Sequence record: MT331608
Source: Escherichia phage SECphi4
Length of the DNA stretch: 44,569 nt
Reading direction: 5' to 3' (one strand)
This document shows, piece by piece, positions 5,806-44,390 of the stretch. Position numbers and translations under genes: made by a program. Numbering within the stretch: the first letter of the stretch is position 1; each line of letters opens with the position of its first letter. Under the pieces are notes generated by a model that was given only the letters and a program-made list of their open reading frames with translations, was not told the origin of the DNA and did no database searches.

Positions 5806-8097
5806 TTACTTCCTGTATCTGTACATAATGTCGCCTTCGGCGGCAAGGGGGAAGCCTTTCGCCCAAATAGGCAGGTCGCACATCAGCGCGCAAAGCTCCT
5901 CGGTCGTGTAGTCGTCGGTGTCCGGCACTTCTGTGATCAATTCATCATGCACCGATAGAACGATTTCATAGCCCGCAGCTTCAACGCCAGGCATGGACCA
6001 TGCGAGAATATCGCGGCACAACGCCTGTACGATGTTCTCCGTCAGTTTGCCGCCGTAGGTGTACTGGAACCCCCACTGGCGCGTCGTATGATTCTCGCCC
6101 TGATATTTAATGCGTGTGCTGGTGCGCTTCTTGCCGGTGTCCTCGTCAATCTCTGTCGTGACAGACAGCGCGATGCCGGGGTAGCTCATGATGCGCCCCG
6201 ACGGCAACTCAATTTTCAACCACCACCCAGCGGCGTTCGGGTCGTCGCGCTCCTCGTCAAAGGTTGGGTCGTGCTTCGCCTTCGTACGGACAATCTTGAG
6301 CGCTTTTCTACCGTCCGGGCGAACGTTCGCGCCAGCCCAGTATGCTTTACCCGGATTGCGGATTGCACACAACACCGCGTCCTCAAGCTCGGCCCAAAAG
6401 GCTACCGTCTTCGGGTGAGCCTCACGCCACATACGTTTGATTGCGTCACAAGTAAGCCATACGTTTTTCGGCAGTATGTATGTTGGGCGCTCGTCCTTCT
6501 TGCCCGGCTTCGGCGGGCGCTTCGCTTCGTTAATGCGAGCGTACTCATAACCACGTTTCGCCGCCGCCCAAATGTGATCGGGGAATGTGCCCTTCATCAC
6601 GTCTGCCATAGTGTAAAGGTCAAGGCCCAGGTTTTTAGCGAACTGCAAAAACGCGGCAACGCCGCCACCATAGCCCAGTCCCAATTCGCACGCCTTACCA
6701 ATCTGGCGTAAGTCCTTGCGGTTGGCTTTAATGTAATCCGGGTCAAGGCCGAACATCTTACCGGCAGTCTCGCAATAGATATCGCGACCGGCCTTAAAGA
6801 CCATTAACGCTGTTTTCTCGCCAGCGATCCAGGCAAGGCCGCGCCCTTCCACGTTGGAGTAGTCAGCTACGACAAACTTCTTGCCCTTTGCAGGGATGAT
6901 GCACCCGCGAACGGTAGAGGCGGTCAGCTTCGATATGTCATACGCCCAGTGCGCTGTCCCACGTAACAGGGAGTTGATGCCGTTGGTGAGCATGTGCGAC
7001 CTGACCCAAAAAGCGACGTCGCTCTCGCCTTCGCGGCGCTTAATCTTCCCTTCGTTGTCGTCGCTGTACTCGCCACGCGCTAGGTTTTGAGGTTGGAAGC
7101 CTTTACCGGCCCAGCGTAGCGTGCGCTTTGCCCCACCATACTGAAGACAACCCCGGCGGCGACCATCGGCAGACAAGCCATTGACGAGCGGATTGTATTT
7201 AGTCGATGCCGTTGATGACGCCCCGAGGCGCATTTCGATAAGCGCTTTGCCCTCGTCCGGGAAGTCTGGGTCTTCCAGTAGGTCGTTTAGCGTGGATTTC
7301 TGCGCGTTGTGTATTGTGAATGCTGGCGCAATATCACGCAGGATTGGCAGGAAGTCATTGCCGGTCAGCTTACCGCCAAATCGCTCCCAGGCTTCTTCCT
7401 TCAATTCTTCCTTATGCGCCTGCACCGCTCTGATCGCGGCGTTAGCCAGGTCAACGTCCACATAGAAGCCGCGGTCGTTAATCAACTGGTCTATAAGCAG
7501 GATTTCATCTTCCTTCGGAGTATTGCCCCAGTCCGGTATGCGCCAGTAGACTTCACGCATTGCGATAATATCCAGCGCGGCATAGCGCAGAAATTTGGCC
7601 CACTCTTCTGGGTGAGTCTCGCGAGTGTAGCGGCGGATTTTGTAGGTCTTAGGGGTAGGCTTACAGAACCGTTTGATCAGCGCCTTGCCCGCCTTATCCT
7701 TCGCATGCTCCGCGTCAACGCCCAGCACCTGGCATTGCATATCGAGGCTTCCGGGCAGCGCGTGGCGAAAGGCCATAATCATGGTATCTTCGATCTGGCA
7801 CACTGGCAGGTCAATGCCCCACTTCTCGCGAATGACCAGGCGGTCAAACAGAAGGCCGTTAGCCATCACGATTTTTGCTTTCTTGCGGGATACCTGGCGG
7901 AGCGCCTTGCGCAGTTCACGCGGCATTGTGGGGGATTCAGTGCAATCCCATGTCTGCACGCGGCCCTCGTCGATGGCGTAGGTGCAAATCATAATCTCGG
8001 TTGATGGGTGTTCTGCGTAGGCGTAAGCGCCGACTTTCTTCAGGTCCACATCGCTAAACGTCTCGGTGTCGAGAAACAGGCGTTCGAAGTATTTCAT
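5806..8097 (-). CDS. DNA polymerase I (family A) with N-terminal 3'-5' exonuclease domain
   Basis: 763 aa; Exo I motif FLDTET at the N-terminus; polymerase motif C LSVHDE near the C-terminus. Confidence 0.9.
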   Translation of the reverse strand: MKYFERLFLDTETFSDVDLKKVGAYAYAEHPSTEIMICTYAIDEGRVQTWDCTESPTMPRELRKALRQVSRKKAKIVMANGLLFDRLVIREKWGIDLPVCQIEDTMIMAFRHALPGSLDMQCQVLGVDAEHAKDKAGKALIKRFCKPTPKTYKIRRYTRETHPEEWAKFLRYAALDIIAMREVYWRIPDWGNTPKEDEILLIDQLINDRGFYVDVDLANAAIRAVQAHKEELKEEAWERFGGKLTGNDFLPILRDIAPAFTIHNAQKSTLNDLLEDPDFPDEGKALIEMRLGASSTASTKYNPLVNGLSADGRRRGCLQYGGAKRTLRWAGKGFQPQNLARGEYSDDNEGKIKRREGESDVAFWVRSHMLTNGINSLLRGTAHWAYDISKLTASTVRGCIIPAKGKKFVVADYSNVEGRGLAWIAGEKTALMVFKAGRDIYCETAGKMFGLDPDYIKANRKDLRQIGKACELGLGYGGGVAAFLQFAKNLGLDLYTMADVMKGTFPDHIWAAAKRGYEYARINEAKRPPKPGKKDERPTYILPKNVWLTCDAIKRMWREAHPKTVAFWAELEDAVLCAIRNPGKAYWAGANVRPDGRKALKIVRTKAKHDPTFDEERDDPNAAGWWLKIELPSGRIMSYPGIALSVTTEIDEDTGKKRTSTRIKYQGENHTTRQWGFQYTYGGKLTENIVQALCRDILAWSMPGVEAAGYEIVLSVHDELITEVPDTDDYTTEELCALMCDLPIWAKGFPLAAEGDIMYRYRK

Positions 8098-14803: not shown

Positions 14804-14884
14804 ATTCTGCGCGCATTGGTTGCCGTTTTGAGTGTTTTTATCCGGTCGTATTGGTTGCCGTGTAGTGTAAATATAATGAATAGT

Positions 14885-15071
14885 TATGCAATAAAACTGC
14901 ATAAAGTAAGCGGGACAAAAAGCGGGACAAACAAGAGGCGGGACAAAGCGGGACAGCACCCCCGTCCCGCCCCGGATGACGCGGCCTGGATAGGAGCGGG
15001 ACAGGCGGGACAAACCCCAGTCTTTCAGACTAGACGGGGGTCAATGGCCCCCCTCGTCTGAGACTGAATAA
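14885..15071. repeat. Iteron element copy A: six or more GCGGGACA direct repeats plus a conserved imperfect palindrome
   Basis: Near-identical to 31562..31740, including a 55-bp identical block cccagtctttcagactagacgggggtcaatggcccccctcgtctgagactgaataa. Confidence 0.85.
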
Positions 15072-15226
15072 AATCCGGGGATTGCAAAATACACGGCAGC
15101 ATAATGCGAAGTGCGGTCGCGGATGAACTAGGCAACCAATGCGATTTGCATTATGCGAAGTGAAAAATGCAGTTTGCAGTTGCAGCAGATAGCGATCAAC
15201 TTTTTCATGCGCGTGATTAATATTGG

Positions 15227-15255
15227 TTGCATTCAACCCGGCGCCTTGCTATATT
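15227..15255 (+). promoter_or_regulatory. Sigma70-like promoter (TTGCAT-N17-TATATT) with ATTGGTTGCA copies at 15222 and 15253
   Basis: Same architecture as the minus-strand promoters; 21-bp block tatattggttgcacaccaaca is shared with the promoter at 25833. Confidence 0.5.
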
Positions 15256-15282
15256 GGTTGCACACCAACATGAGGGCGGAAC

Positions 15283-36607: not shown

Positions 36608-37215
36608 CAACGTTTAAATTGTACGGCGTCTTAGGGCGTCGTTTTGGTAAAGTGCATAAGCTGGACTGCTTCACACCGGGAGAAGGCATCACCGGCCTGT
36701 GTGTGAAGTTGCCAGGGTTACAAGACTTTTTAATGTCGGCCCACCTGGACAATATGATGTTCAAGGTGCGCAAAGGCAACCACACGATGACCGGTTATGA
36801 TGAGCTTGGCGAGTTCCACGGCAACCGCGTCGTTACCATCGCGCCGGTTATGACGGGGGCAAAAAGCGGACTGGGCCAATTGCTGGCGGGTGTCGCGATT
36901 GTAGTGGCGTCGTTCTATACTGGCGGACTTGCTACTGCCGCTTTCGGGGCTTCGGCTGCAACCGCTGCCGCTATCGGTACGGCTACATTTTCGTTCGGCA
37001 TGTCGCTTGCGCTGGGCGGTGCTATGCAATTGCTGTCCCCACAGCCGAAAGGATTGCAGACCCGGCAGGACGTGGATAACAAAGCGTCGTATGCGTTCGG
37101 CGGCCCTGTAAACACGACCGCACAAGGTACGGCACTTGGTGTATTATGGGGCGAGCGCGAGATCGGCGGCGCTATTATTTCAGCCGGAATCGTAACCGAG
37201 GACTTGAACGAATGA
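36598..37215 (+). CDS. Tail assembly protein (lambda gpI-like)
   Basis: 205 aa; glycine/alanine-rich hydrophobic C-terminal half; position between K-like and J-like genes. Confidence 0.7.
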   Translation: MAMTTFKLYGVLGRRFGKVHKLDCFTPGEGITGLCVKLPGLQDFLMSAHLDNMMFKVRKGNHTMTGYDELGEFHGNRVVTIAPVMTGAKSGLGQLLAGVAIVVASFYTGGLATAAFGASAATAAAIGTATFSFGMSLALGGAMQLLSPQPKGLQTRQDVDNKASYAFGGPVNTTAQGTALGVLWGEREIGGAIISAGIVTEDLNE

Positions 37216-40200
37216 CGATTGTATACGACGTCACAGGCCATAAAGGCGGCGGAGGCAAACAGCACACCCCACAGGAGACGCCTGATAGCCTGCATTCGCT
37301 GGCTAAAATCCGCATCTTGCTTGCGCTGGGTGAAGGGGAATTCGAAGGCATTACGAGCGCCAGCGAATTGCGGCAGCGTGTATACCTGGATGGAACACCT
37401 ATCCAGAACGCAGACCTGTCTGAAAACTTCCCCGGAGCGCGCGTGGAGTTCCGCCCCGGCACACAGCACCAGGATGTGATCCACGGATTTTCAGCGGTGG
37501 AAAGTGAGCAATCCGTCGGTGTAAAACTGGAAAACGGTACGCCGTGGGTGCGCCAGATTAACGACACCAGTCTTGACGCCGTGCGCGTTCGCATCGGCAT
37601 TCCTGCCCTGTACACTAGCGAAGATAATGGCGACCTGGTGGGCGGGCGCATCGACTATAAGATCGTTGTGTATACAGATAACGCCGACCCGCGTGAGTTT
37701 ACCTTCGCTGCCGTTGGTAAAACAATGTCGCTATACGAGCGCGATCACCGCATCGAGCTACCGCCGAACGTTAACACCGGCTGGCGCGTGGAGGTGCACC
37801 GCATAACGGCAGACTCCACATCGGCAAAAGTGGTTAACGATATCCAGGTGCAATCTATTACTGAGATTATCGACGCCCGTCTTCGCTACCCGCTAACCGC
37901 GCTGTTGTTCGTGGAGTTCGACGCTAAAGCGTTCCAGAACATCCCGCGCGTGTCCATTAAGTGCAAAGGCCGCAAAGTTCTAATACCGAACAACTACGAC
38001 CCGATTAATCATACTTATTCTGGCGACTGGGACGGAACGTTTAAACGCGCATGGTCGGACAACCCTGCGTGGCACTGGTACGATATTTGTATTACTGAGC
38101 GCTTCGGCCTCGGTCGCCGGATCAAACCGCAAATGCTGAACCGGTACGCGCTCTACCAGATCGCGCAGCGCTGCGATCAGTTGGTCAGCGACGGCAACGG
38201 CGGACGGGAAATCCGATTTAAGAATGATATGTACATCCAGTCGCAGACAGACGCCTGGACCGTGCTTAAGGATTTAGCTGCCATCTTCGCCGGGATGACC
38301 TGGTGGGGAAACCAAATGTTGAATATCGTCAGTGACCAACCGGTCGCAGCAGTGTCGCACACTATCACCAACGCCTCGGTTATTGATGGTCGATTCGACT
38401 ACGCATCTGGCAGCCAGAAAACGCGGTACTCCACTTTCGCGGTAGCATACGGCAACCCGAAAAACCACTATGATGACGCTATCGCAACGGGCCAGCGCGT
38501 CGAACTGGTGCGCCGCCATAAGATTAACCGTCTTGATATAACGGCGATCGGCTGTACGCGCGAATCTGAAGCGCAACGCCGCGGACACTGGGCGCTAATC
38601 TCCAACCAGTTGGACCAGCAGGTCAGCTTCAAGGTTGGCATGGAGGGGCTATTCTTTATTCCTGGTAGCGTAGTCGCGATCGCGGATACTAATATTTCTG
38701 GCGGATTCGAGACTCGCGGCGGTCGCCTGTTGTCAGACCCTGGCACGCGTACCGTGCTTAACACAGACAGCGAAATCACATTCCGCCCTGGTGATAAGTT
38801 CCTGGTGCGCACCGATAGCGGAAATGTGGAGACTCGCGAGATCGCCAGCGTCAACGGCAACAAGGTCACGCTAAAAACCGCACTGGATGCCGACCCGATT
38901 CCAGACCAACCGTTTTGCGTTGATGGCGACGATATCCAGTTGCAAAAATTCCGCATCACCGATCTGGAGTATGACGACTCTACGAGCACTTTCTCGGTGC
39001 GCGGGATTGAATACAACGATAGCAAATATGATGCCGTTGATAATGGCGCACGACTAGACCCAGGCATCTTTACGCAAGTGCCAGACGGGGTAATGAAGGG
39101 GCCGGAATCCGTTACCATCACCCCGTCGCAGATTTCATCGCAAGGACAGCTAATCACCAACGTGGATATTGTTTTCCCGCCGGTGAAAGATGCCGTGGTG
39201 TATGAAATCCAGTGGAGGCGTACAAGCCTGCAGAATATGGCGGTCCAGTGGGGTAACGACTGGGTGAATATCCCGCGCACGGCGTCGAATGGCGCGCACA
39301 TCCCTAACGTGTTCTCCGGAAACTACCAGGCGCGCGTCCGTGCGATCGGTATGGGCGAGATTTCATCCCCGTGGGTGTCGTCCGCCATCACGCCGGTCGA
39401 AGGTCGCCTCGGGGGACTTAACGCGCCTATCATCACCAACGCGATTTCTGGCCTTCACCAGATCTTGTGGAAGTGGAATCACAACAACGCCGCGACGGAT
39501 ATTTCTTACACCGAGCTTGAAGTCCGCAAGACGGGCGAAACGGAATGGAAGTTCTTAACAAACGTCCCGTATCCTGGCGCGGAGTACGCGCAAACGTCGC
39601 TGGAGTTCGGAATTTACCAGCAGTTGCGCGCCCGTGTAGCGGATAAAATCGGCAACCTGTCGGACTGGTCGGCCCCGTTTGAAGGGCAGGTGAGTGACAA
39701 AGTTGACGAGTACATGAAGGGGCTTGATGACGAGTTCTTGACTTCCGAGGATGGTAAACGCTTCCAGGAAGCAATCGACACTGTCCCGCAGGGTATTTAC
39801 GAGGCGATGCTCACCGACGCGCAGCAATTGTTCAACGCCCGCGCCGAGTACAAAGGGATTTATGCGGAAATAAAGGTGGCGTATAACGTGGCGGCAGACG
39901 CCCACAAGGCAGTCGCGCAACTGGAAACGTTGATCGGCACGCGCCTCGATGATGCGGAAGCGGCGATCCACACGTTGCAGACAGCGCAAAGCACACAGGA
40001 ACAAGCATTCGCCCAGTACCAGCAAACTGTTGCCGCTAAGTTTTCGGAACAGGAAGCCGCCATCCAGCAGGTACAAACGGCAACGGCGGACGTAGCGGGC
40101 GCGCTGGCGGAGTACAAGACCCAAGTCGCGGCGCAGTTCGGGCAGCAGTCCGCCGCTATCGAGCAGAAGATGACATCTTCGTTCAACCATGCGGGTGGTA

Positions 40201-40631
40201 GCGCCACATACAGCCTTAAGGCTGGCGTGACGTATAACGGGACTTACTACGACGCGGGTATGCAGCTTTCTGTTGTGACGGAAGGCGACGCGGTTAAATC
40301 CAGCATCGCGTTCAAAGCGGACCAGTTCTACATAATGCACCCATCTAACGGGTCGCTTTCGTCCGCGTTTATCGTAGACGGAGGCGCGGTGTATATTGAC
40401 ACGGCACGCATCAAAGACGCGACTATCAACTTCGCGCAGATCACGGACACGTTGCAATCGAATAACTATGACGGCGACACGCGTGGTTGGCGCTTAGGGA
40501 AAGATGGGACGTTTATCAACCTGGGAACCGGTAACGGTGGCGGGATGAAACAGACGAACACGCAAATCAGCGTGAAAGATGGGAACGGCGTTCTGCGCGT
40601 GCAGATTGGCGAAATTACGGGCAGTTGGTAA
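37212..40631 (+). CDS. Central tail fibre / host specificity protein (lambda gpJ-like)
   Basis: 1139 aa; N-terminus GGGKQHTPQETPDSLHSLAKIRILLALGEGEFEGI parallels the lambda J N-terminus; GAGGA SD. Confidence 0.85.
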   Translation: MTIVYDVTGHKGGGGKQHTPQETPDSLHSLAKIRILLALGEGEFEGITSASELRQRVYLDGTPIQNADLSENFPGARVEFRPGTQHQDVIHGFSAVESEQSVGVKLENGTPWVRQINDTSLDAVRVRIGIPALYTSEDNGDLVGGRIDYKIVVYTDNADPREFTFAAVGKTMSLYERDHRIELPPNVNTGWRVEVHRITADSTSAKVVNDIQVQSITEIIDARLRYPLTALLFVEFDAKAFQNIPRVSIKCKGRKVLIPNNYDPINHTYSGDWDGTFKRAWSDNPAWHWYDICITERFGLGRRIKPQMLNRYALYQIAQRCDQLVSDGNGGREIRFKNDMYIQSQTDAWTVLKDLAAIFAGMTWWGNQMLNIVSDQPVAAVSHTITNASVIDGRFDYASGSQKTRYSTFAVAYGNPKNHYDDAIATGQRVELVRRHKINRLDITAIGCTRESEAQRRGHWALISNQLDQQVSFKVGMEGLFFIPGSVVAIADTNISGGFETRGGRLLSDPGTRTVLNTDSEITFRPGDKFLVRTDSGNVETREIASVNGNKVTLKTALDADPIPDQPFCVDGDDIQLQKFRITDLEYDDSTSTFSVRGIEYNDSKYDAVDNGARLDPGIFTQVPDGVMKGPESVTITPSQISSQGQLITNVDIVFPPVKDAVVYEIQWRRTSLQNMAVQWGNDWVNIPRTASNGAHIPNVFSGNYQARVRAIGMGEISSPWVSSAITPVEGRLGGLNAPIITNAISGLHQILWKWNHNNAATDISYTELEVRKTGETEWKFLTNVPYPGAEYAQTSLEFGIYQQLRARVADKIGNLSDWSAPFEGQVSDKVDEYMKGLDDEFLTSEDGKRFQEAIDTVPQGIYEAMLTDAQQLFNARAEYKGIYAEIKVAYNVAADAHKAVAQLETLIGTRLDDAEAAIHTLQTAQSTQEQAFAQYQQTVAAKFSEQEAAIQQVQTATADVAGALAEYKTQVAAQFGQQSAAIEQKMTSSFNHAGGSATYSLKAGVTYNGTYYDAGMQLSVVTEGDAVKSSIAFKADQFYIMHPSNGSLSSAFIVDGGAVYIDTARIKDATINFAQITDTLQSNNYDGDTRGWRLGKDGTFINLGTGNGGGMKQTNTQISVKDGNGVLRVQIGEITGSW

Positions 40632-40636
40632 CCTAC

Positions 40637-40658
40637 GGGGCTTTGGCCCCTTTCTTTT
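40637..40658 (+). terminator. Rho-independent terminator after the J-like gene
   Basis: Stem GGGGC/GCCCC with short loop followed by TTTCTTTT. Confidence 0.55.
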
Positions 40659-40669
40659 GGAGGTAATGT

Positions 40670-40972
40670 ATGGCTTTCGGAGTCGAAACATGGGACGAAC
40701 AAGGGCGACCAAACAACTACGGAATCAAACCGGTGTCGGTTGTCGGAATTATTAAACTGGCACAAGGTCAAACATCGGGGGCGTGGGCGTTCGATATTCC
40801 GTCAGGGATGAAAGTAGGTTTTGCGGTTACGCTGGACGTTGGCGGCACTACGGTCGGTAGGGCGATCCGTGCCAGCGGGAACACGATAACAGTGTCCGCG
40901 GCAAACAGCGCCGGTATTGGAAACTACCCGGCGTCAGAATGTGAAGTAGTAGTTTTTGTGGAGAAAGCGTAA
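40670..40972 (+). CDS. Hypothetical tail-associated protein
   Basis: 100-aa ORF with SD, between the J-like and fibre genes. Confidence 0.45.
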   Translation: MAFGVETWDEQGRPNNYGIKPVSVVGIIKLAQGQTSGAWAFDIPSGMKVGFAVTLDVGGTTVGRAIRASGNTITVSAANSAGIGNYPASECEVVVFVEKA

Positions 40973-40974
40973 AA

Positions 40975-41646
40975 ATGGCAAACTTCGGCGCGTTAATCGA
41001 TAACAACAACGGCAACCCATTCGTCACGCCAAACTCAACGCCGTTCGTCCTCTACGCTAAGGTGTCGGCAAATTCAGTGGACGCCGGTGCTGATTATAAA
41101 ACAGCAAGCGGGGGCGTGGATATCCCCTCGAACTATCCGGCAATGGTTTTCATGCGGTCAAACAACCGTTGCGTCCTGGCGGCGTCACGATCAGGTAATC
41201 GGATTATATTTAGCGGAAGCATTCAGGGGCAGAATAACCCACATTTTACCGTCACGGCGTACATATTCGCGCGGTTCCCGCAACCGCTGCCAAAATGGGG
41301 CTTTGCTATTTGGGACGCCAGCGGGACTTGCATACTAACCAACGAAAGCAAGGTGCTCACCGATCTAGTAACTGTCGGCAGCTTCGGTAATAGCGGAGGG
41401 ATTAACATAGACCAGACGCTGCCTGGTAAGTACGCGGTATCACCTATGTTAATGGGCGCTACTCTGATCCAGATCTTTGTACAGGGGCAGCCACAGATTA
41501 TCCAGATCTCGGCGGGGGCAGGGGCTTACGACAACGGAAGCGGCACTCGTATTAACGCAGTCGCTACGCAGGCTGGGTCTGGTAGCATCGCCGGGTATCA
41601 AAACACCGGCGTTGCGCTGACCGCAATTAACGTTGATGGGATATGA
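40975..41646 (+). CDS. Hypothetical tail-associated protein
   Basis: 223-aa Gly/Ser/Asn-rich ORF. Confidence 0.45.
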   Translation: MANFGALIDNNNGNPFVTPNSTPFVLYAKVSANSVDAGADYKTASGGVDIPSNYPAMVFMRSNNRCVLAASRSGNRIIFSGSIQGQNNPHFTVTAYIFARFPQPLPKWGFAIWDASGTCILTNESKVLTDLVTVGSFGNSGGINIDQTLPGKYAVSPMLMGATLIQIFVQGQPQIIQISAGAGAYDNGSGTRINAVATQAGSGSIAGYQNTGVALTAINVDGI

Positions 41647-41670
41647 AAAAGCCCCTTTCGGGGCTTATTT
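41646..41670. terminator. Bidirectional rho-independent terminator between convergent genes
   Basis: Stem AGCCCC/GGGGCT with TTTC loop flanked by an A run and a T run. Confidence 0.6.
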
Positions 41671-41886
41671 GCAGGTTGTGCTTTTGAAGTGGTCAACCGA
41701 CACATACTGGAAGTTGAATGGGTATCCCGCCCGTAACATTTTATGACCGTTAACGTCTGCAACCCCAAACACCGGGACCGAGTATTCCATGCCGCTATTA
41801 ATATATGTCGCGTCGCAGATTTTAGACGGCATATTGGCGCAACCGGACAAAAAAAAAGCCGCACAAATCATAATTAAAGTTTTCAT
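41665..41886 (-). CDS. Small lipoprotein (73 aa), candidate superinfection-exclusion protein
   Basis: Signal peptide MKTLIMICAAFFLSGC with lipobox LSGC; opposite strand to the flanking tail genes. Confidence 0.6.
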   Translation of the reverse strand: MKTLIMICAAFFLSGCANMPSKICDATYINSGMEYSVPVFGVADVNGHKMLRAGYPFNFQYVSVDHFKSTTCK

Positions 41887-41916
41887 GGTATCATCTCTTA
41901 TATTTGGTTGAGTTTT

Positions 41917-41945
41917 AGTATCGCACTGCTTAACCATTAATGCAA
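41917..41945 (-). promoter_or_regulatory. Candidate promoter (TTGCAT-N17-GATACT) with an ATTGGTTGCA copy
   Basis: Motif at 41941..41950 on the complementary strand, upstream of the lipoprotein gene. Confidence 0.35.
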
Positions 41946-41966
41946 CCAATTTATGAGGATTTAGCA

Positions 41967-43784
41967 ATGGCGGCGGGAACATTATCCGTAACGAATAACA
42001 GCAAGACAGTTGTAGGGGTTGGCACGACGTTCACCGCGTTTAAAGCTGGCGACTTCTTAACTCTGGTGGTGGGGCAAGTGCCTTACACTGTTGCGATCGC
42101 GTCCGTAGAAAGCGACACCGCGCTTACGCTGGTGCTGCCGTTCGACGGCCCAACGGCAGCAGGCCTTGCGTGGGATGGCGTTAAGCGCGATACCATGTCG
42201 CTGGCAACGATGGGCGTAACAGTACAGGCACAGAAAGCGTTGCGCTTGATGCTCGCGGACGAAAACAACTGGCGTGCGATATTCGGAGACGAAGAAGAAA
42301 TCACGGTAACGCTGCCGAACGGGCAAGTAATGCAGGGTATGTCGTGGGGCTATCTGTCGCAATTGATGAAGGAAATAGACCCCGTTGAGATGCGCAACCT
42401 GCAACAAAAAACCCGCGAGTCTGAGTTAGCCACGTGGCATTATCGGCAGGAGGTCGAAGGCTTTAAGAACGACACCAATTCCATCAAGGACCAGACAAAC
42501 CAGATTAAGGAGGATACGCAGGCTATCCACGACGCCACCAATGCCATCAAGGACCAGACAAACCAGATTAAGGCTGACACCGGCGTTATTCGCGACGAGG
42601 CCAATGCCGCGAATGCTGAAGCGCAAGCCGCCAGCACTGCCGCGCAGGGATTTCGCGATCAGGCCGAAGAATTGGTGCAAAGCATAAACCCCGACAATCT
42701 GCTAACCAAATCCGGCAACCTGGCGGGCCTGGCTGACCGCGCCGCTTCATGGCTTAATATTCGCCCGATTGGACCTACTCCGCTCGCTGGCGATCCTGTT
42801 GACGATTATGACGCCACCACGAAGCGTTGGGTGCAGAATACGCTAAACTCTGGCGTAATCGGACAAAGCTGGGGTGTTAAGAACGTAAATGTTAGCACCC
42901 CAGAGCCAGGCGTTAACGTCAGTGGCGGAATGTTGGTGTCTGAATACTCCAACCCGGAACGCAGTCTTTTTGCTCGCCTATACTCGAACACTGTATGGGG
43001 TTATCCTGGAGCGGCTATTATTGAGGCGGAAGGTAGTAACAAGCACACATACCAGTTTTTTGAAGACGGCACTGTTGATTTCAGGAAATCCGGTAATTCA
43101 AACCGAGTCAGCATGCACACATCCACCTCAAGTTGGTATAACGTCACAACGGCGTCACGCACCGACTTGACATCAGGTGGGGTTGACAGAATTCTGGAAG
43201 CAGAGGCGTCGGATATTTTAGTACTGGGGTACACTATTGGTGCGTCACGTCCTGACGGCTACCCAACAAAAGTAGGCTTTCATCAATATATTTGGCCTAC
43301 GGAATCATACAACTTCGCTTCAGCGGTAATCTCAATTGGTGCGGACAATGGTTGGTGTAAATTCCTTTTTGGTGTGGACGGGGTGATCTGGGGGTCTACA
43401 GATCAAGGTGATTTTTCCTACACCCGTAACGGTGTGTCCGACTCGCGTGTTAAGCACGGCATAGAGCCAACAACCGTTGATAAGGCGTGGAGTAACTTGA
43501 CATCCCTACAGTTTGTAACGTTTGTTTATAATAACGATGAGCAGGAGCGCCAGCGACGTGGCATTATCGCGCAGCAAGCAGAGACTGTAGATAAGCTATA
43601 TGTAAAAACAAGGGTTTATCCTGGTAAAAATACAGGGGACTCTATGGTTGAACAGAAGGAACTGGATACTATGCCATTGCTTCTTGACACCATGCATGTT
43701 GTGCAAACGCTGATGCTGAAGATCGAGGCGATGGAAGCAGAGATTGCCACCCTTAGAGAAGAAGTGGCGGAGTTGAAGAAATAA
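41967..43784 (+). CDS. Side tail fibre with coiled-coil repeats and probable C-terminal intramolecular chaperone domain
   Basis: 605 aa; tandem 21-aa repeats (T-N-x-I-K-D-Q-T-N-Q-I-K); C-terminal SDSRVK...GIIAQ motifs resemble the S74-type chaperone domain. Confidence 0.7.
   Translation: MAAGTLSVTNNSKTVVGVGTTFTAFKAGDFLTLVVGQVPYTVAIASVESDTALTLVLPFDGPTAAGLAWDGVKRDTMSLATMGVTVQAQKALRLMLADENNWRAIFGDEEEITVTLPNGQVMQGMSWGYLSQLMKEIDPVEMRNLQQKTRESELATWHYRQEVEGFKNDTNSIKDQTNQIKEDTQAIHDATNAIKDQTNQIKADTGVIRDEANAANAEAQAASTAAQGFRDQAEELVQSINPDNLLTKSGNLAGLADRAASWLNIRPIGPTPLAGDPVDDYDATTKRWVQNTLNSGVIGQSWGVKNVNVSTPEPGVNVSGGMLVSEYSNPERSLFARLYSNTVWGYPGAAIIEAEGSNKHTYQFFEDGTVDFRKSGNSNRVSMHTSTSSWYNVTTASRTDLTSGGVDRILEAEASDILVLGYTIGASRPDGYPTKVGFHQYIWPTESYNFASAVISIGADNGWCKFLFGVDGVIWGSTDQGDFSYTRNGVSDSRVKHGIEPTTVDKAWSNLTSLQFVTFVYNNDEQERQRRGIIAQQAETVDKLYVKTRVYPGKNTGDSMVEQKELDTMPLLLDTMHVVQTLMLKIEAMEAEIATLREEVAELKK
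42471..42590. repeat. Tandem 63-bp repeat inside the fibre gene
   Basis: Repeated aat(t/g)ccatcaaggaccagacaaaccagattaagg at about 42477 and 42540. Confidence 0.8.
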
Positions 43785-43787
43785 ACT

Positions 43788-43816
43788 AAAAAGGGGCCAT
43801 GCGGCCCTTTTTTTTT
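43788..43816. terminator. Bidirectional rho-independent terminator where the two arms converge
   Basis: Stem GGGCC/GGCCC with ATGC loop flanked by A5 and T9. Confidence 0.7.
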
Positions 43817-44390
43817 AGTTTGAGTTTTCCCAATCCATTTTGCGCCTCACCAGCGGGCTTTCGAAGTATTCCTTACCTTCCACTTCCACTAAAGGCCAAT
43901 CGTTCACGATCACGTATGGCTCTGCTATATCCTCAATCACACCGTGCGCGCTATGCTGCCCAAACGACACACCAACCAGAATAACACCGGCAACTCGACG
44001 GGAAAGATACTCGCGAGCGCAACGGGCCTCAACCAGCCCGCGACGGATGCCGCTGGTAGCTTTGACCTCATAGGTCCAGACGGCATCAATCATGTGTTCC
44101 CGGAAGTCTGGGCCGGATTTAACCTTGCGCTTACCGACCATGATAATATCGCCGCGGTCGATAGTGTTAGCGCTAAACAGGCCGGTACGCATTAGCAAAC
44201 CTTGCGGAATACAGCTACGCCCGCCCGCCTGCCCTTCGAGGTACATGCCCGCAAACATCTCACCCAGCACACCGACCAGACGGCTTTGCTTGCAAGCGTC
44301 GGACTTGTATCGCCACTGGTCAAACTCGATGCTCGCGATCATCGCCGCCAGGTGGAATTGTTTACCAGATATTTCATATTCGCCGTACAT
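43815..44390 (-). CDS. Hypothetical protein with PD-(D/E)XK-like motif
   Basis: 191 aa; GPDF...IDAVWTYEVK resembles a restriction-endonuclease-fold core; last gene of the minus-strand arm. Confidence 0.5.
   Translation of the reverse strand: MYGEYEISGKQFHLAAMIASIEFDQWRYKSDACKQSRLVGVLGEMFAGMYLEGQAGGRSCIPQGLLMRTGLFSANTIDRGDIIMVGKRKVKSGPDFREHMIDAVWTYEVKATSGIRRGLVEARCAREYLSRRVAGVILVGVSFGQHSAHGVIEDIAEPYVIVNDWPLVEVEGKEYFESPLVRRKMDWENSN

Follow-up and report, generated by a model that had tools for sequence, protein, structure and literature searches.

A Cor-family lipoprotein gene and its probable FhuA receptor-specificity cassette in the virulent phage SECphi4

Introduction

Cor lipoproteins have been known since the 1980s–90s. 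Wietzorrek et al. (2006), the BASEL paper (2021) and a 2026 analysis have reportedly described the cassette of three genes that includes cor, together with its link to FhuA. The family members studied experimentally, under the name 'lysogenic conversion', come from phi80, HK022, N15 and the mEp phages, all of which depend on FhuA (PMC13164509); their Cor proteins are 40–45% identical to the SECphi4 protein analysed here. A preprint that cites Uc-Mass 2004 (10.64898/2026.03.26.714494) reports functional inactivation of FhuA by Cor proteins, and there exclusion together with impairment of FhuA transport is reported for lambdoid Cor only.

Two other receptor-directed phage lipoproteins offer points of comparison. 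Llp of phage T5 carries a Cys11–Cys58 disulphide and is made in the lytic cycle from a gene that adjoins the receptor-binding gene (PMC9586334). Lipoproteins of the Rtp45 type are periplasmic and bar the receptor-binding protein (RBP) from the phage's own receptor, targeting LptDE by physical loop displacement, not by allostery (PMC12685063).

Here we analysed a minus-strand gene of Escherichia phage SECphi4 (record MT331608), using the whole 44,569-nucleotide stretch, hereafter the window. The genome is that of a Dhillonvirus, about 92% identical to those of YD-2008.s, B2 and SECphi18. On comparative grounds we judge it very probable that the gene product is a Cor-family superinfection-exclusion lipoprotein of a virulent Dhillonvirus and that it acts on FhuA. 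As a member of the long-known Cor family the gene is ordinary, with nothing new in its identity, and it carries little weight as a discovery, since both the Cor gene and the cassette have already been described.

A conserved lipoprotein gene between tail genes

The cor reading frame runs on the minus strand from an ATG at 41886 to a TAA at 41665–41667 (Table 1), and its product begins MKTLIMICAAFFLSGC|ANMP. An alternative ATG at 41982 would extend the protein to 105 aa; relatives are annotated with the 72/73-aa form. Both neighbours are plus-strand tail genes, that of the 223-aa protein upstream and the fibre gene downstream. An earlier note, made from the sequence without database searches, had described a 73-aa minus-strand lipoprotein with an LSGC lipobox in this setting, and the open reading frame and lipobox bear that description out.

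Table 1. Positions of cor, its control elements and the neighbouring tail genes in the window
Feature	Coordinates	Strand	Basis
Last 54 codons of the J-like tail-tip gene	40467..40631	plus	co-variation with the cassette
100-aa protein, accessory cassette component	40670..40972	plus	phrog_557, E 9.9e-32
223-aa protein, candidate FhuA-binding protein	40975..41646	plus	phrog_425, E 9e-67
GC-rich hairpin between the convergent 223-aa gene and cor	41649..41666	both	scan, RNA fold
cor gene, 73-aa prolipoprotein plus stop codon	41665..41886	minus	ORF, family models, dN/dS
Mature Cor domain, 57 residues past the lipidated Cys	41668..41838	minus	AF2 model, fold match
Signal peptide with lipobox L-S-G-C	41839..41886	minus	sequence
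Putative cor promoter, TTGCAT-N17-GATACT with TG at −15/−14	41917..41945	minus	sequence, conservation
Genome-wide motif GCAACCAAT, one copy	41942..41950	plus	motif count, context
Lateral tail fibre gene, outside the cassette	41967..43784	plus	PF13884, E 1.4e-10; phrog_1980

The signal sequence comprises a basic n-region (K2), a hydrophobic core and the lipobox L13-S14-G15-C16, whose L-x-G-C pattern is invariant among the Cor proteins of T1, phi80 and Dhillonvirus. Cys16 is the predicted lipidated residue (MKTLIMICAAFFLSG-C16), giving a mature form of 58 residues. Under the Lol rule the residue at +2 governs outer-membrane sorting, and the Ala found at this position in Cor predicts that the protein is sorted to the outer membrane.

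We also weighed whether the frame could be a non-functional remnant or a chance frame in the spacer between tail genes. Such a reading would accommodate its shortness, its modest ribosome-binding site (GAGA, 8 nt upstream of the start) and a promoter that is weak by consensus. We rejected it as extremely improbable, given a dN/dS of 0.07–0.16 (dS 0.5–0.7) against three relatives, retention of the full-length frame in 243 phage records from several phage families, scores that pass curated thresholds and a confident fold prediction.

Sequence relationship to the Cor family

Against NF047972, the NCBIfam equivalog-level model for 'phage exclusion lipoprotein Cor', which was built on FhuA-excluding lambdoid Cor proteins and has a cut-off of 31 bits, the SECphi4 protein scored 61.8 bits over residues 1–72 of 73. 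The phrog_1119 family ('Cor superinfection exclusion protein') matched residues 1–73 with an E value of 4.9e-28, and Pfam returned no family for Cor or for the 100-aa and 223-aa proteins encoded beside it. By tblastn, identity was 53% to T1 cor, 45% to HK022 cor and 40% to phi80 cor. The T1 protein (orf30, AAP49969), likewise from a virulent phage, keeps this identity over its full length and has the same lipobox, cysteine pair and AGYPF motif. Across a six-sequence alignment that includes T1 and phi80, C24, C72, A53-G54-Y55-P56-F57 (AGYPF), V62-S63 and F67 are invariant. Many close relatives and many Dhillonvirus records label the gene a superinfection exclusion protein, and homology predicts an exclusion function for Dhillonvirus Cor. 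The proposal in the earlier note that this is a superinfection-exclusion lipoprotein of the T5 Llp or T1 Cor kind thus gains support from NF047972, from the identity to T1, from the shared motifs, and from the fold and cassette described below.

A small outer-membrane lipoprotein with its own transcription unit, as many morons are, might instead belong to the lysis system as an o-spanin, or be a host-fitness moron of the Bor/Lom type. We consider this highly improbable: the full-length matches are to the two Cor models, Pfam matched the protein neither to Bor nor to any other family, and the gene occupies the slot that in LptD-using Dhillonviruses holds the LptD exclusion lipoprotein type, which has experimental support. 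The o-spanin assignment in particular was discarded on genomic context, as the gene is flanked by tail genes, does not lie beside lysis genes and has no overlapping or adjacent i-spanin or membrane-anchored ORF.

Predicted fold and comparison with T5 Llp

We modelled Cor with AF2 on an alignment that is shallow because a word-index homologue search yielded just seven sequences, all close relatives. The model shows a small beta-sheet fold with a pLDDT of ~92 over residues 21–70. Its top Foldseek match among 350,542 PDB chains was T5 Llp bound to FhuA (8a60_B; probability 1.00, rmsd 2.8 Å over 51 columns, 24% identity), a weak match by absolute measures (Foldseek E 0.057, TM 0.49/0.56), and the top BFVD matches were T5-like 'receptor-blocking protein' and lipoprotein entries. 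At the sequence level, a single-sequence search of Cor against PDB sequences gave no meaningful match, and none to Llp at E up to 10; a profile of the seven Cor sequences placed Llp first at E 0.0016, mostly through the signal peptide and ~25 mature residues.

Cor and Llp are similar in size and their cysteines are similarly placed, at mature Cys9/Cys57 in Cor and Cys11/Cys58 in Llp; a Cys24–Cys72 disulphide probably ties together both ends of mature Cor. The two proteins are nonetheless only ~24% identical over the structural alignment and differ in their partners, that of Llp being pb5, which belongs to a different family and is encoded at another genome position, whereas the neighbours of Cor are phrog_557 and phrog_425 proteins. 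A single superfamily for Cor and Llp is proposed in a preprint (10.64898/2026.03.26.714494), a relationship that sequence does not establish.

Cor is part of a swapped cassette linked to FhuA use

Downstream of the J gene (37146–40631), SECphi4 carries the 100-aa gene, the 223-aa gene and cor, an order found alike in T1 and phi80. The 100-aa protein is a homologue of N15 gp22, phi80 gp22 and T1 orf32, and the 223-aa protein of N15 gp23, phi80 gp23 and T1 orf31; both are without a signal peptide or transmembrane segment (maximum 19-residue hydropathy 0.89 and 1.21). T1 shares the whole arrangement of J, terminator, ~100-aa gene, ~225-aa gene, hairpin and opposite-strand cor. It differs in its backbone, which is of Drexlerviridae and not Dhillonvirus, and in the recombination genes that follow cor where SECphi4 has the lateral fibre, and its counterparts of the 100-aa and 223-aa proteins are only 47–49% identical. 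Like SECphi4, phi80 has the gp22/gp23 homologues upstream of cor and a tail fibre gene downstream, but its cor lies on the same strand as J and is expressed from the prophage, whereas SECphi4 cor is inverted. The literature on the genus Dhillonvirus held no sign of lysogeny, so SECphi4 Cor would act in lytic growth, like T5 Llp.

What is swapped as one unit comprises the 100-aa and 223-aa genes, the segment of cor for the mature protein and the segment of J for its final 54 residues. This J tip is 93–96% identical among cor-carrying Dhillonviruses. It is 61% identical to that of T1, where the preceding 300 aa are 30% identical, and 27–29% identical to those of the LptD-type phages Oekolampad and HK578, where the preceding 300 aa are 94–95% identical. 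DNA homology to the LptD-type phages and to EP23 ends at 40467; homology to Oekolampad returns at 41836. In LptD-using Oekolampad and HK578 the whole cassette is replaced by an Rtp44/Rtp45-like RBP and lipoprotein, and this lipoprotein (Rtp45, or bas18_0026 in Oekolampad) has the same slot, promoter region and start as Dhillonvirus cor, with a signal peptide that is nearly the same. The two arrangements differ in strand, the partner RBP of the Rtp45 type being encoded on the same, minus strand and the partners of cor on the plus strand. The J tip is a probable docking site for one or more cassette-encoded proteins, and these comparisons make this tip and the 100-aa and 223-aa proteins the candidate cognate receptor-binding components.

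The earlier note had named either the adjacent fibre or the two proteins encoded just upstream of cor as the likely receptor-binding components. The co-swapping with cor favours the two proteins and speaks against the fibre, which varies independently of the cassette: Dhillonviruses share a conserved fibre N terminus irrespective of cassette type, and the distal part of the fibre changes independently of cor. The fibre ends in a Peptidase_S74 chaperone domain, which is typical of glycan-binding lateral fibres.

Several lines of evidence from relatives bear on the receptor. The cor cassette locus has been named a receptor-specificity locus (PMC8594841; bioRxiv 10.64898/2026.04.02.716166), and among BASEL phages the three-gene cor cassette is found in FhuA users only (PMC13164509). 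A literature search for the SECphi4 receptor found only a table entry in which no receptor is named. Phage bob, reported to be FhuA-dependent (PMC10373560), has a 223-aa protein 97% identical and a Cor 89% identical to those of SECphi4. Three further relatives with this cassette, JLBYU37, JLBYU60 and Teewinot, were tested and are FhuA-dependent (PMC10373560); JLBYU37, whose Cor is 81% identical to that of SECphi4, was shown to require FhuA (PMC10373560). From these relationships we infer FhuA as the target of SECphi4 Cor.

We consider it unlikely that this Cor-fold lipoprotein blocks another outer-membrane protein, for example a different TonB-dependent transporter such as BtuB, or that its exclusion of phages works otherwise than by periplasmic allostery of the Llp kind, perhaps via other outer-membrane proteins. 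The possibility arises because Markadamsvirinae that use BtuB, and one Tempevirinae phage, encode Cor-like lipoproteins (PMC13164509). The Cor fold alone cannot fix the target, because BtuB-using phages carry such lipoproteins too; in addition, the mechanism of Cor is stated to be unsettled (preprint 10.64898/2026.03.26.714494), and the structural match of Cor to Llp is moderate. However, the Cor-like genes of Markadamsvirinae are found without both partner genes and that of the Tempevirinae phage without the outer membrane protein gene; all three cassette genes together, as in SECphi4, were found with FhuA only (PMC13164509). The near-identical cassettes of bob and JLBYU37 and the score above the cut-off of NF047972, with its origin in FhuA-excluding proteins, likewise argue for FhuA.

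Terminator and control region

For cor, the hairpin between the convergent genes is clearly an intrinsic terminator; for the plus-strand operon it is a weaker one. On the minus strand (41666..41649) the scan called AAGCCCC-GAAA-GGGGCTT followed by TTTCAT, which begins at the cor stop codon; the hairpin folds at −14.5 kcal/mol (z = −2.9), and a terminator is annotated at the corresponding place in T1. Read on the plus strand, this hairpin comes after the stop codon of the 223-aa gene and has a weak T-tail, ATTTGCAG, and the scan made no plus-strand call at 41649..41666. The bidirectional terminator of the earlier note is therefore half supported: its minus-strand half rests on a scan call, and its plus-strand half falls short because the T-tail is weak and was left uncalled.

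Upstream, cor and the fibre gene have a common 80-bp control region, in which the earlier note had placed a motif-containing cor promoter. An extended −10 promoter for cor at 41917–41945 is plausible from the sequence: the string given in Table 1 occurs once in the window, and its TTG, its TGn and its AATACT/GATACT hexamer are kept in four relatives. The consensus scan did not report it because its −35 matches the consensus at 3/6 positions. A minus-strand promoter that the scan did call (41894..41867) lies across the start codon of cor and is unable to drive the gene.

The window contains 16 exact copies of the motif, GCAACCAAT, where 0.58 would be expected, and the copy in the control region overlaps the cor −35 and is invariant at that position in 6/6 Dhillonvirus loci compared. 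A literature search for the string returned unrelated primer sequences only. The place of this copy on the plus strand, directly 3' of a −10-like ATTAAT (41936–41941) and 16 nt ahead of the fibre start, makes it no less likely to be part of the fibre control region than of that of cor. The promoter part of the earlier claim thus stands as plausible, whereas the motif fits the fibre gene as well as or better than cor.

Discussion

We propose a mobile receptor-specificity cassette of two halves: cor would provide exclusion, and the J tip with the 100-aa and 223-aa proteins would be the adsorption apparatus for the same receptor. After infection cor would be transcribed alone and presumably early, on the strand opposite the late tail operon, with transcription probably starting at the extended −10 host-type promoter and stopping at the hairpin after the stop codon. 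The 57-residue mature domain, with its probable Cys24–Cys72 disulphide, would bind the periplasmic face of the ferrichrome transporter FhuA and, by analogy with the T5 Llp structure, would lock it through an allosteric block so that its surface loops refuse phage. The infected cell, and later its debris, would no longer adsorb SECphi4 or other FhuA-dependent phages.

The cor cassette would let FhuA be predicted as the terminal receptor of SECphi4 from sequence alone. For retargeting by engineering, it singles out the J tip and the 223-aa protein rather than the lateral fibre.

More tentatively, and with odds that we put well short of even, the 80-bp control region of Dhillonviruses, together with the first 5–17 codons of the lipoprotein gene, could form a fixed 'socket' for swapped exclusion domains, with GCAACCAAT as a regulator site. 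Unrelated mature domains may be recombined into such a socket with their cognate receptor-binding genes and a matching 54-residue J tip: Cor for FhuA, an Rtp45-like protein for LptD and, in EP23, perhaps a third, unannotated lipoprotein. Whichever cassette is present, GCAACCAAT might serve a phage regulator that switches expression from the lipoprotein to the fibre. The right-hand recombination junction may lie inside the signal-peptide coding sequence; SECphi4 Cor and Oekolampad bas18_0026 have MKTLIMICA..LSGCA in common, and their mature parts are unrelated.

A Cor lipoprotein encoded in a known cassette

An earlier note on this DNA had read a 73-aa lipoprotein (lipobox LSGC) on the minus strand between plus-strand tail genes, and the ORF list and the sequence bear this out. 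The cor frame runs from an ATG at 41886 to a TAA at 41665-41667 and encodes MKTLIMICAAFFLSGCANMPSKICDATYINSGMEYSVPVFGVADVNGHKMLRAGYPFNFQYVSVDHFKSTTCK, whose N-terminus, judged by its residues, is a classic lipoprotein signal peptide in which Lys2 and a hydrophobic core precede the lipobox L-S-G-C16, with Ala at +2. The 58-residue mature form carries two more cysteines, at mature positions 9 and 57. The protein is matched full-length by phrog_1119, 'Cor superinfection exclusion protein' (E 4.9e-28), and scores 61.8 bits against the NCBIfam equivalog NF047972, 'phage exclusion lipoprotein Cor' (curated cut-off, 31 bits); a Pfam search returned no model for it. Set beside this membership of the Cor family, a lipoprotein with another function is very unlikely.

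A tblastn search of 50,697 phage records found Cor homologues in 244, with identities to the window's protein of 53% in T1, 45% in HK022 and the mEp phages and 40% in phi80; ES18 was also matched. The lipobox, Cys24, Cys72, A-G-Y-P-F (53-57), V62-S63 and F67 are invariant in the alignment from Dhillonvirus to T1 and phi80. Against three relatives, cor shows dS of 0.48-0.69 and dN of 0.04-0.11, and the dN/dS of 0.07-0.16 indicates purifying selection and thus no chance ORF; a non-functional frame is very unlikely. Neither cor nor the cassette around it (the J tip, that is, the last 54 residues of J, a 100-aa protein, a 223-aa protein and Cor) is new: the cassette is well described, and in several Dhillonvirus records the equivalent ORF is annotated as 'Cor superinfection exclusion protein' or 'super-infection exclusion protein'. 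Identity to the Dhillonvirus genomes YD-2008.s, B2, SECphi18 and SSL-2009a and to about 150 other records is about 92-93% across the tail region and the surrounding 24.5 kb; the phage collection searched offers no record closer to the window than about 93% identity.

Genes neighbouring cor and copies of the repeated motif
Feature	Position	Strand	Description	Source
J-like tail-tip gene	37146-40631	+	1161 aa, upstream of cor	ORF list
100-aa gene	40670-40972	+	upstream of cor	ORF list
223-aa gene	40975-41646	+	upstream of cor	ORF list
Fibre gene	41967-43784	+	605 aa, downstream of cor	ORF list
GCAACCAAT copies	499, 2392, 2409, 5351, 12002, 14815, 14850, 15132, 15222, 15253, 15983, 18591, 25826, 25840, 36474, 41942			

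The J start in this mechanical ORF list lies 22 codons 5' of the start used by relatives; J of Shigella phage EP23 opens with MTIIYDVTG, corresponding to window position 37212, which is probably the real start. Just past the fibre gene, a conserved 191-aa gene of unknown function (43815-44390, minus strand; phrog_10558, E 7e-119) occupies the same place in every Dhillonvirus locus looked at, and a bidirectional-looking terminator (43788-43813) separates the two.

Predicted fold of Cor

An AlphaFold2 model of Cor, made from an input alignment of 7 sequences, contains four beta-strands and a confident mature domain (pLDDT about 92 over residues 21-70). Among 350,542 PDB chains, its top Foldseek match was 8a60 chain B, the FhuA-blocking T5 lipoprotein Llp crystallised with FhuA (prob 1.00, rmsd 2.8 A over 51 columns, 24% identity, TM 0.49/0.56, E 0.057). 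A profile from the 7-sequence alignment ranked Llp first against all PDB sequences (E 0.0016); a single-sequence Cor query against PDB sequences found nothing. A viral structure library returned a Dhillonvirus orthologue first, then T5-like 'receptor-blocking protein' and lipoprotein entries. The invariant Cys9 and Cys57 of mature Cor are placed like Cys11 and Cys58 of Llp, which tie the Llp termini by a disulphide (PMC9586334), and two recent papers conclude that T1-type and lambdoid Cor have a fold in common with Llp (PMC13164509; bioRxiv 10.64898/2026.03.26.714494). Cor family matches, the Llp-like predicted fold and linkage to the cassette together support the earlier reading of this gene as a receptor-blocking exclusion lipoprotein of the T5 Llp or T1 Cor kind.

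Boundaries of the cassette

Three phages were compared with the window at the DNA level: EP23 and two LptD-using Dhillonviruses, Oekolampad and HK578. Homology to all three ends at 40467, 54 codons before the end of J, and restarts at 41836 (Oekolampad) or 41873 (HK578 and EP23), within the stretch of the lipoprotein gene that encodes the signal peptide; because of these measured boundaries, we take the moving unit to consist of the mature Cor domain, both small genes (100 aa and 223 aa) and the J tip. Among cor-carrying Dhillonviruses, this tip is conserved at 93-96% identity. Between the window and T1 it is 61% identical and the preceding 300 residues of J only 30%, whereas between the window and Oekolampad and HK578 the tip is only 27-29% identical and the preceding 300 residues 94-95%. 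Cor and the LptD-type exclusion lipoprotein of Oekolampad have MKTLIMICA..LSGCA in common and are unrelated thereafter.

Between the boundaries, Oekolampad and HK578 carry a Rtp44-like RBP and a Rtp45-like lipoprotein, both on the minus strand. Cryo-EM has shown that the Oekolampad RBP binds LptDE and that Rtp45, the homologous lipoprotein of phage Rtp, also does so, pushing aside the extracellular loop EL4 and keeping the RBP from binding (PMC12685063). In EP23 (JN984867.1), J and the fibre gene likewise flank this slot, which there holds an unannotated 80-aa ORF (7063-7305, minus strand; MKTLIKNLIIPAACLLMTAC...), a probable lipoprotein whose start region is as in cor and whose mature part is unrelated; EP23 J is longer than the window's and, from its length of 1272 aa, has a C-terminal extension. 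Two points here are mildly new: the exact recombination boundaries, within the signal peptide and near the J end, and a single control region and signal peptide common to unrelated exclusion lipoproteins.

Linkage of the cassette to FhuA

A three-gene cor cassette is present in T1, HK022, N15, ES18 and phi80, all FhuA-dependent (PMC13164509, in a passage citing Wietzorrek 2006), and in the BASEL collection the full cassette occurs only in Drexlerviridae and Dhillonvirus phages that use FhuA (PMC13164509). Alleles of the receptor-specificity locus agree with receptor specificity without exception (PMC8594841), a match confirmed by genome-wide screens and AlphaFold3 models in a 2026 preprint (bioRxiv 10.64898/2026.04.02.716166). 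The T1 order is J, terminator, 101-aa gene, 229-aa gene, terminator and then cor on the opposite strand; in phi80, J is followed by gp22 (100 aa), gp23 (224 aa), cor on the same strand and the tail fibre. N15 gp22 and gp23 were among the tblastn matches to the cassette proteins.

In cor-carrying Dhillonviruses, the 223-aa protein exists as two deeply diverged alleles, about 97% or about 52-54% identical to the window's, across which Cor stays 81-92% and the J tip 93-96% identical. The window's allele is found at 90% identity or more in 32 records, and other cor-carrying Dhillonviruses lie near 52%; outside Dhillonvirus, the closest among the matches listed are Pseudomonas phage Motto (59%) and N15 gp23 (55%). 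Phage bob gives one continuous match over J, both small genes and cor (223-aa protein 97% identical, Cor 89%), and JLBYU37 carries the second allele (54%; Cor 81%, J tip 93%). bob is reported to be FhuA-dependent, and a FhuA requirement has been shown experimentally for JLBYU37, JLBYU60 and Teewinot (PMC10373560); both alleles thus go with phages reported to use FhuA.

The earlier note had offered the adjacent fibre or the proteins at 40670..41646 as the likely receptor-binding components. The fibre gene is conserved at its 5' end in every Dhillonvirus irrespective of cassette, and its distal part differs even from that of YD-2008.s, whose cassette is the same. The Peptidase_S74 chaperone domain at the end of the fibre fits the BASEL assignment of this gene as a glycan-binding lateral fibre (PMC8594841). 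Since the fibre varies independently of the cassette and the 100-aa and 223-aa proteins move with cor, the latter, with the J tip, are the candidate cognate receptor-binding proteins. The 100-aa protein is in phrog_557 and the 223-aa protein in phrog_425, the families of their T1 and phi80 counterparts; both lack a signal peptide and any hydrophobic segment.

Within the 223-aa protein, residues 107-127 show a weak match to the N-terminal end of phrog_557, the 100-aa family, and so hint at a domain common to both. In the phage collection, 349 records, 111 of them from Klebsiella phages, have a homologue of the 223-aa protein, and Cor is detectable only in its 244, two from Klebsiella phages; either Cor there is too diverged to detect, or these phages use the adsorption half of the cassette without Cor.

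Transcription signals and proposed mechanism

cor is its own opposite-strand transcription unit with a good terminator: a hairpin (AAGCCCC-GAAA-GGGGCTT; -14.5 kcal/mol, z = -2.9) followed by a T-run begins at its stop codon and is called on the minus strand by the terminator scan. The proposed bidirectional activity is supported for that strand only; on the plus strand, the T-tail is weak and the scan gave no call. Directly after the J stop, before the 100-aa gene, lies a terminator-like plus-strand hairpin with a T-run (GGGGC-TTTG-GCCCC, 40637-40650), matching in place an annotated terminator of T1, so that the cassette genes may be less strongly expressed than J. The putative cor promoter (TTGCAT-N17-GATACT with a TG extension, 41917-41945, minus strand), described earlier as motif-containing, is conserved in relatives, but its -35 agrees with consensus at only 3/6 positions, a consensus promoter scan did not report it, and the motif copy lies on the plus strand.

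Transcription of cor would start at this host-type extended -10 promoter and would not depend on the late tail operon. Ala at +2 directs lipoproteins to the outer membrane; Cor would arrive at its inner leaflet, bind FhuA from the periplasmic side and, once bound, stop this phage and other FhuA phages adsorbing to debris and to cells already infected. Lambdoid Cor proteins are reported to inactivate FhuA functions (bioRxiv 10.64898/2026.03.26.714494), and a Cor that has another target or excludes phages in another way appears unlikely here. We consider it highly probable that outer-membrane Cor binds FhuA from the periplasm and prevents adsorption.

The motif GCAACCAAT has 16 exact copies in the window (0.58 expected), on both strands, with many in or near intergenic regions. 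Copies are often paired, 14-35 bp apart, and five lie within 14815-15261; at about 487-507, one copy and a second half-site form the palindrome GCAACCAAT-agg-TTGGTTGC. No relevant literature turned up in a search for the string. Several copies come right after a -10-like hexamer (TATAAT, CATACT, ATTAAT). The plus-strand copy at 41942-41950 abuts such an ATTAAT, 16 nt 5' of the fibre start, and overlaps the cor -35; at this intergenic position the motif is invariant in all six Dhillonvirus loci fetched. The motif may serve many of the phage's transcription units, either as a regulator site or as a promoter element.
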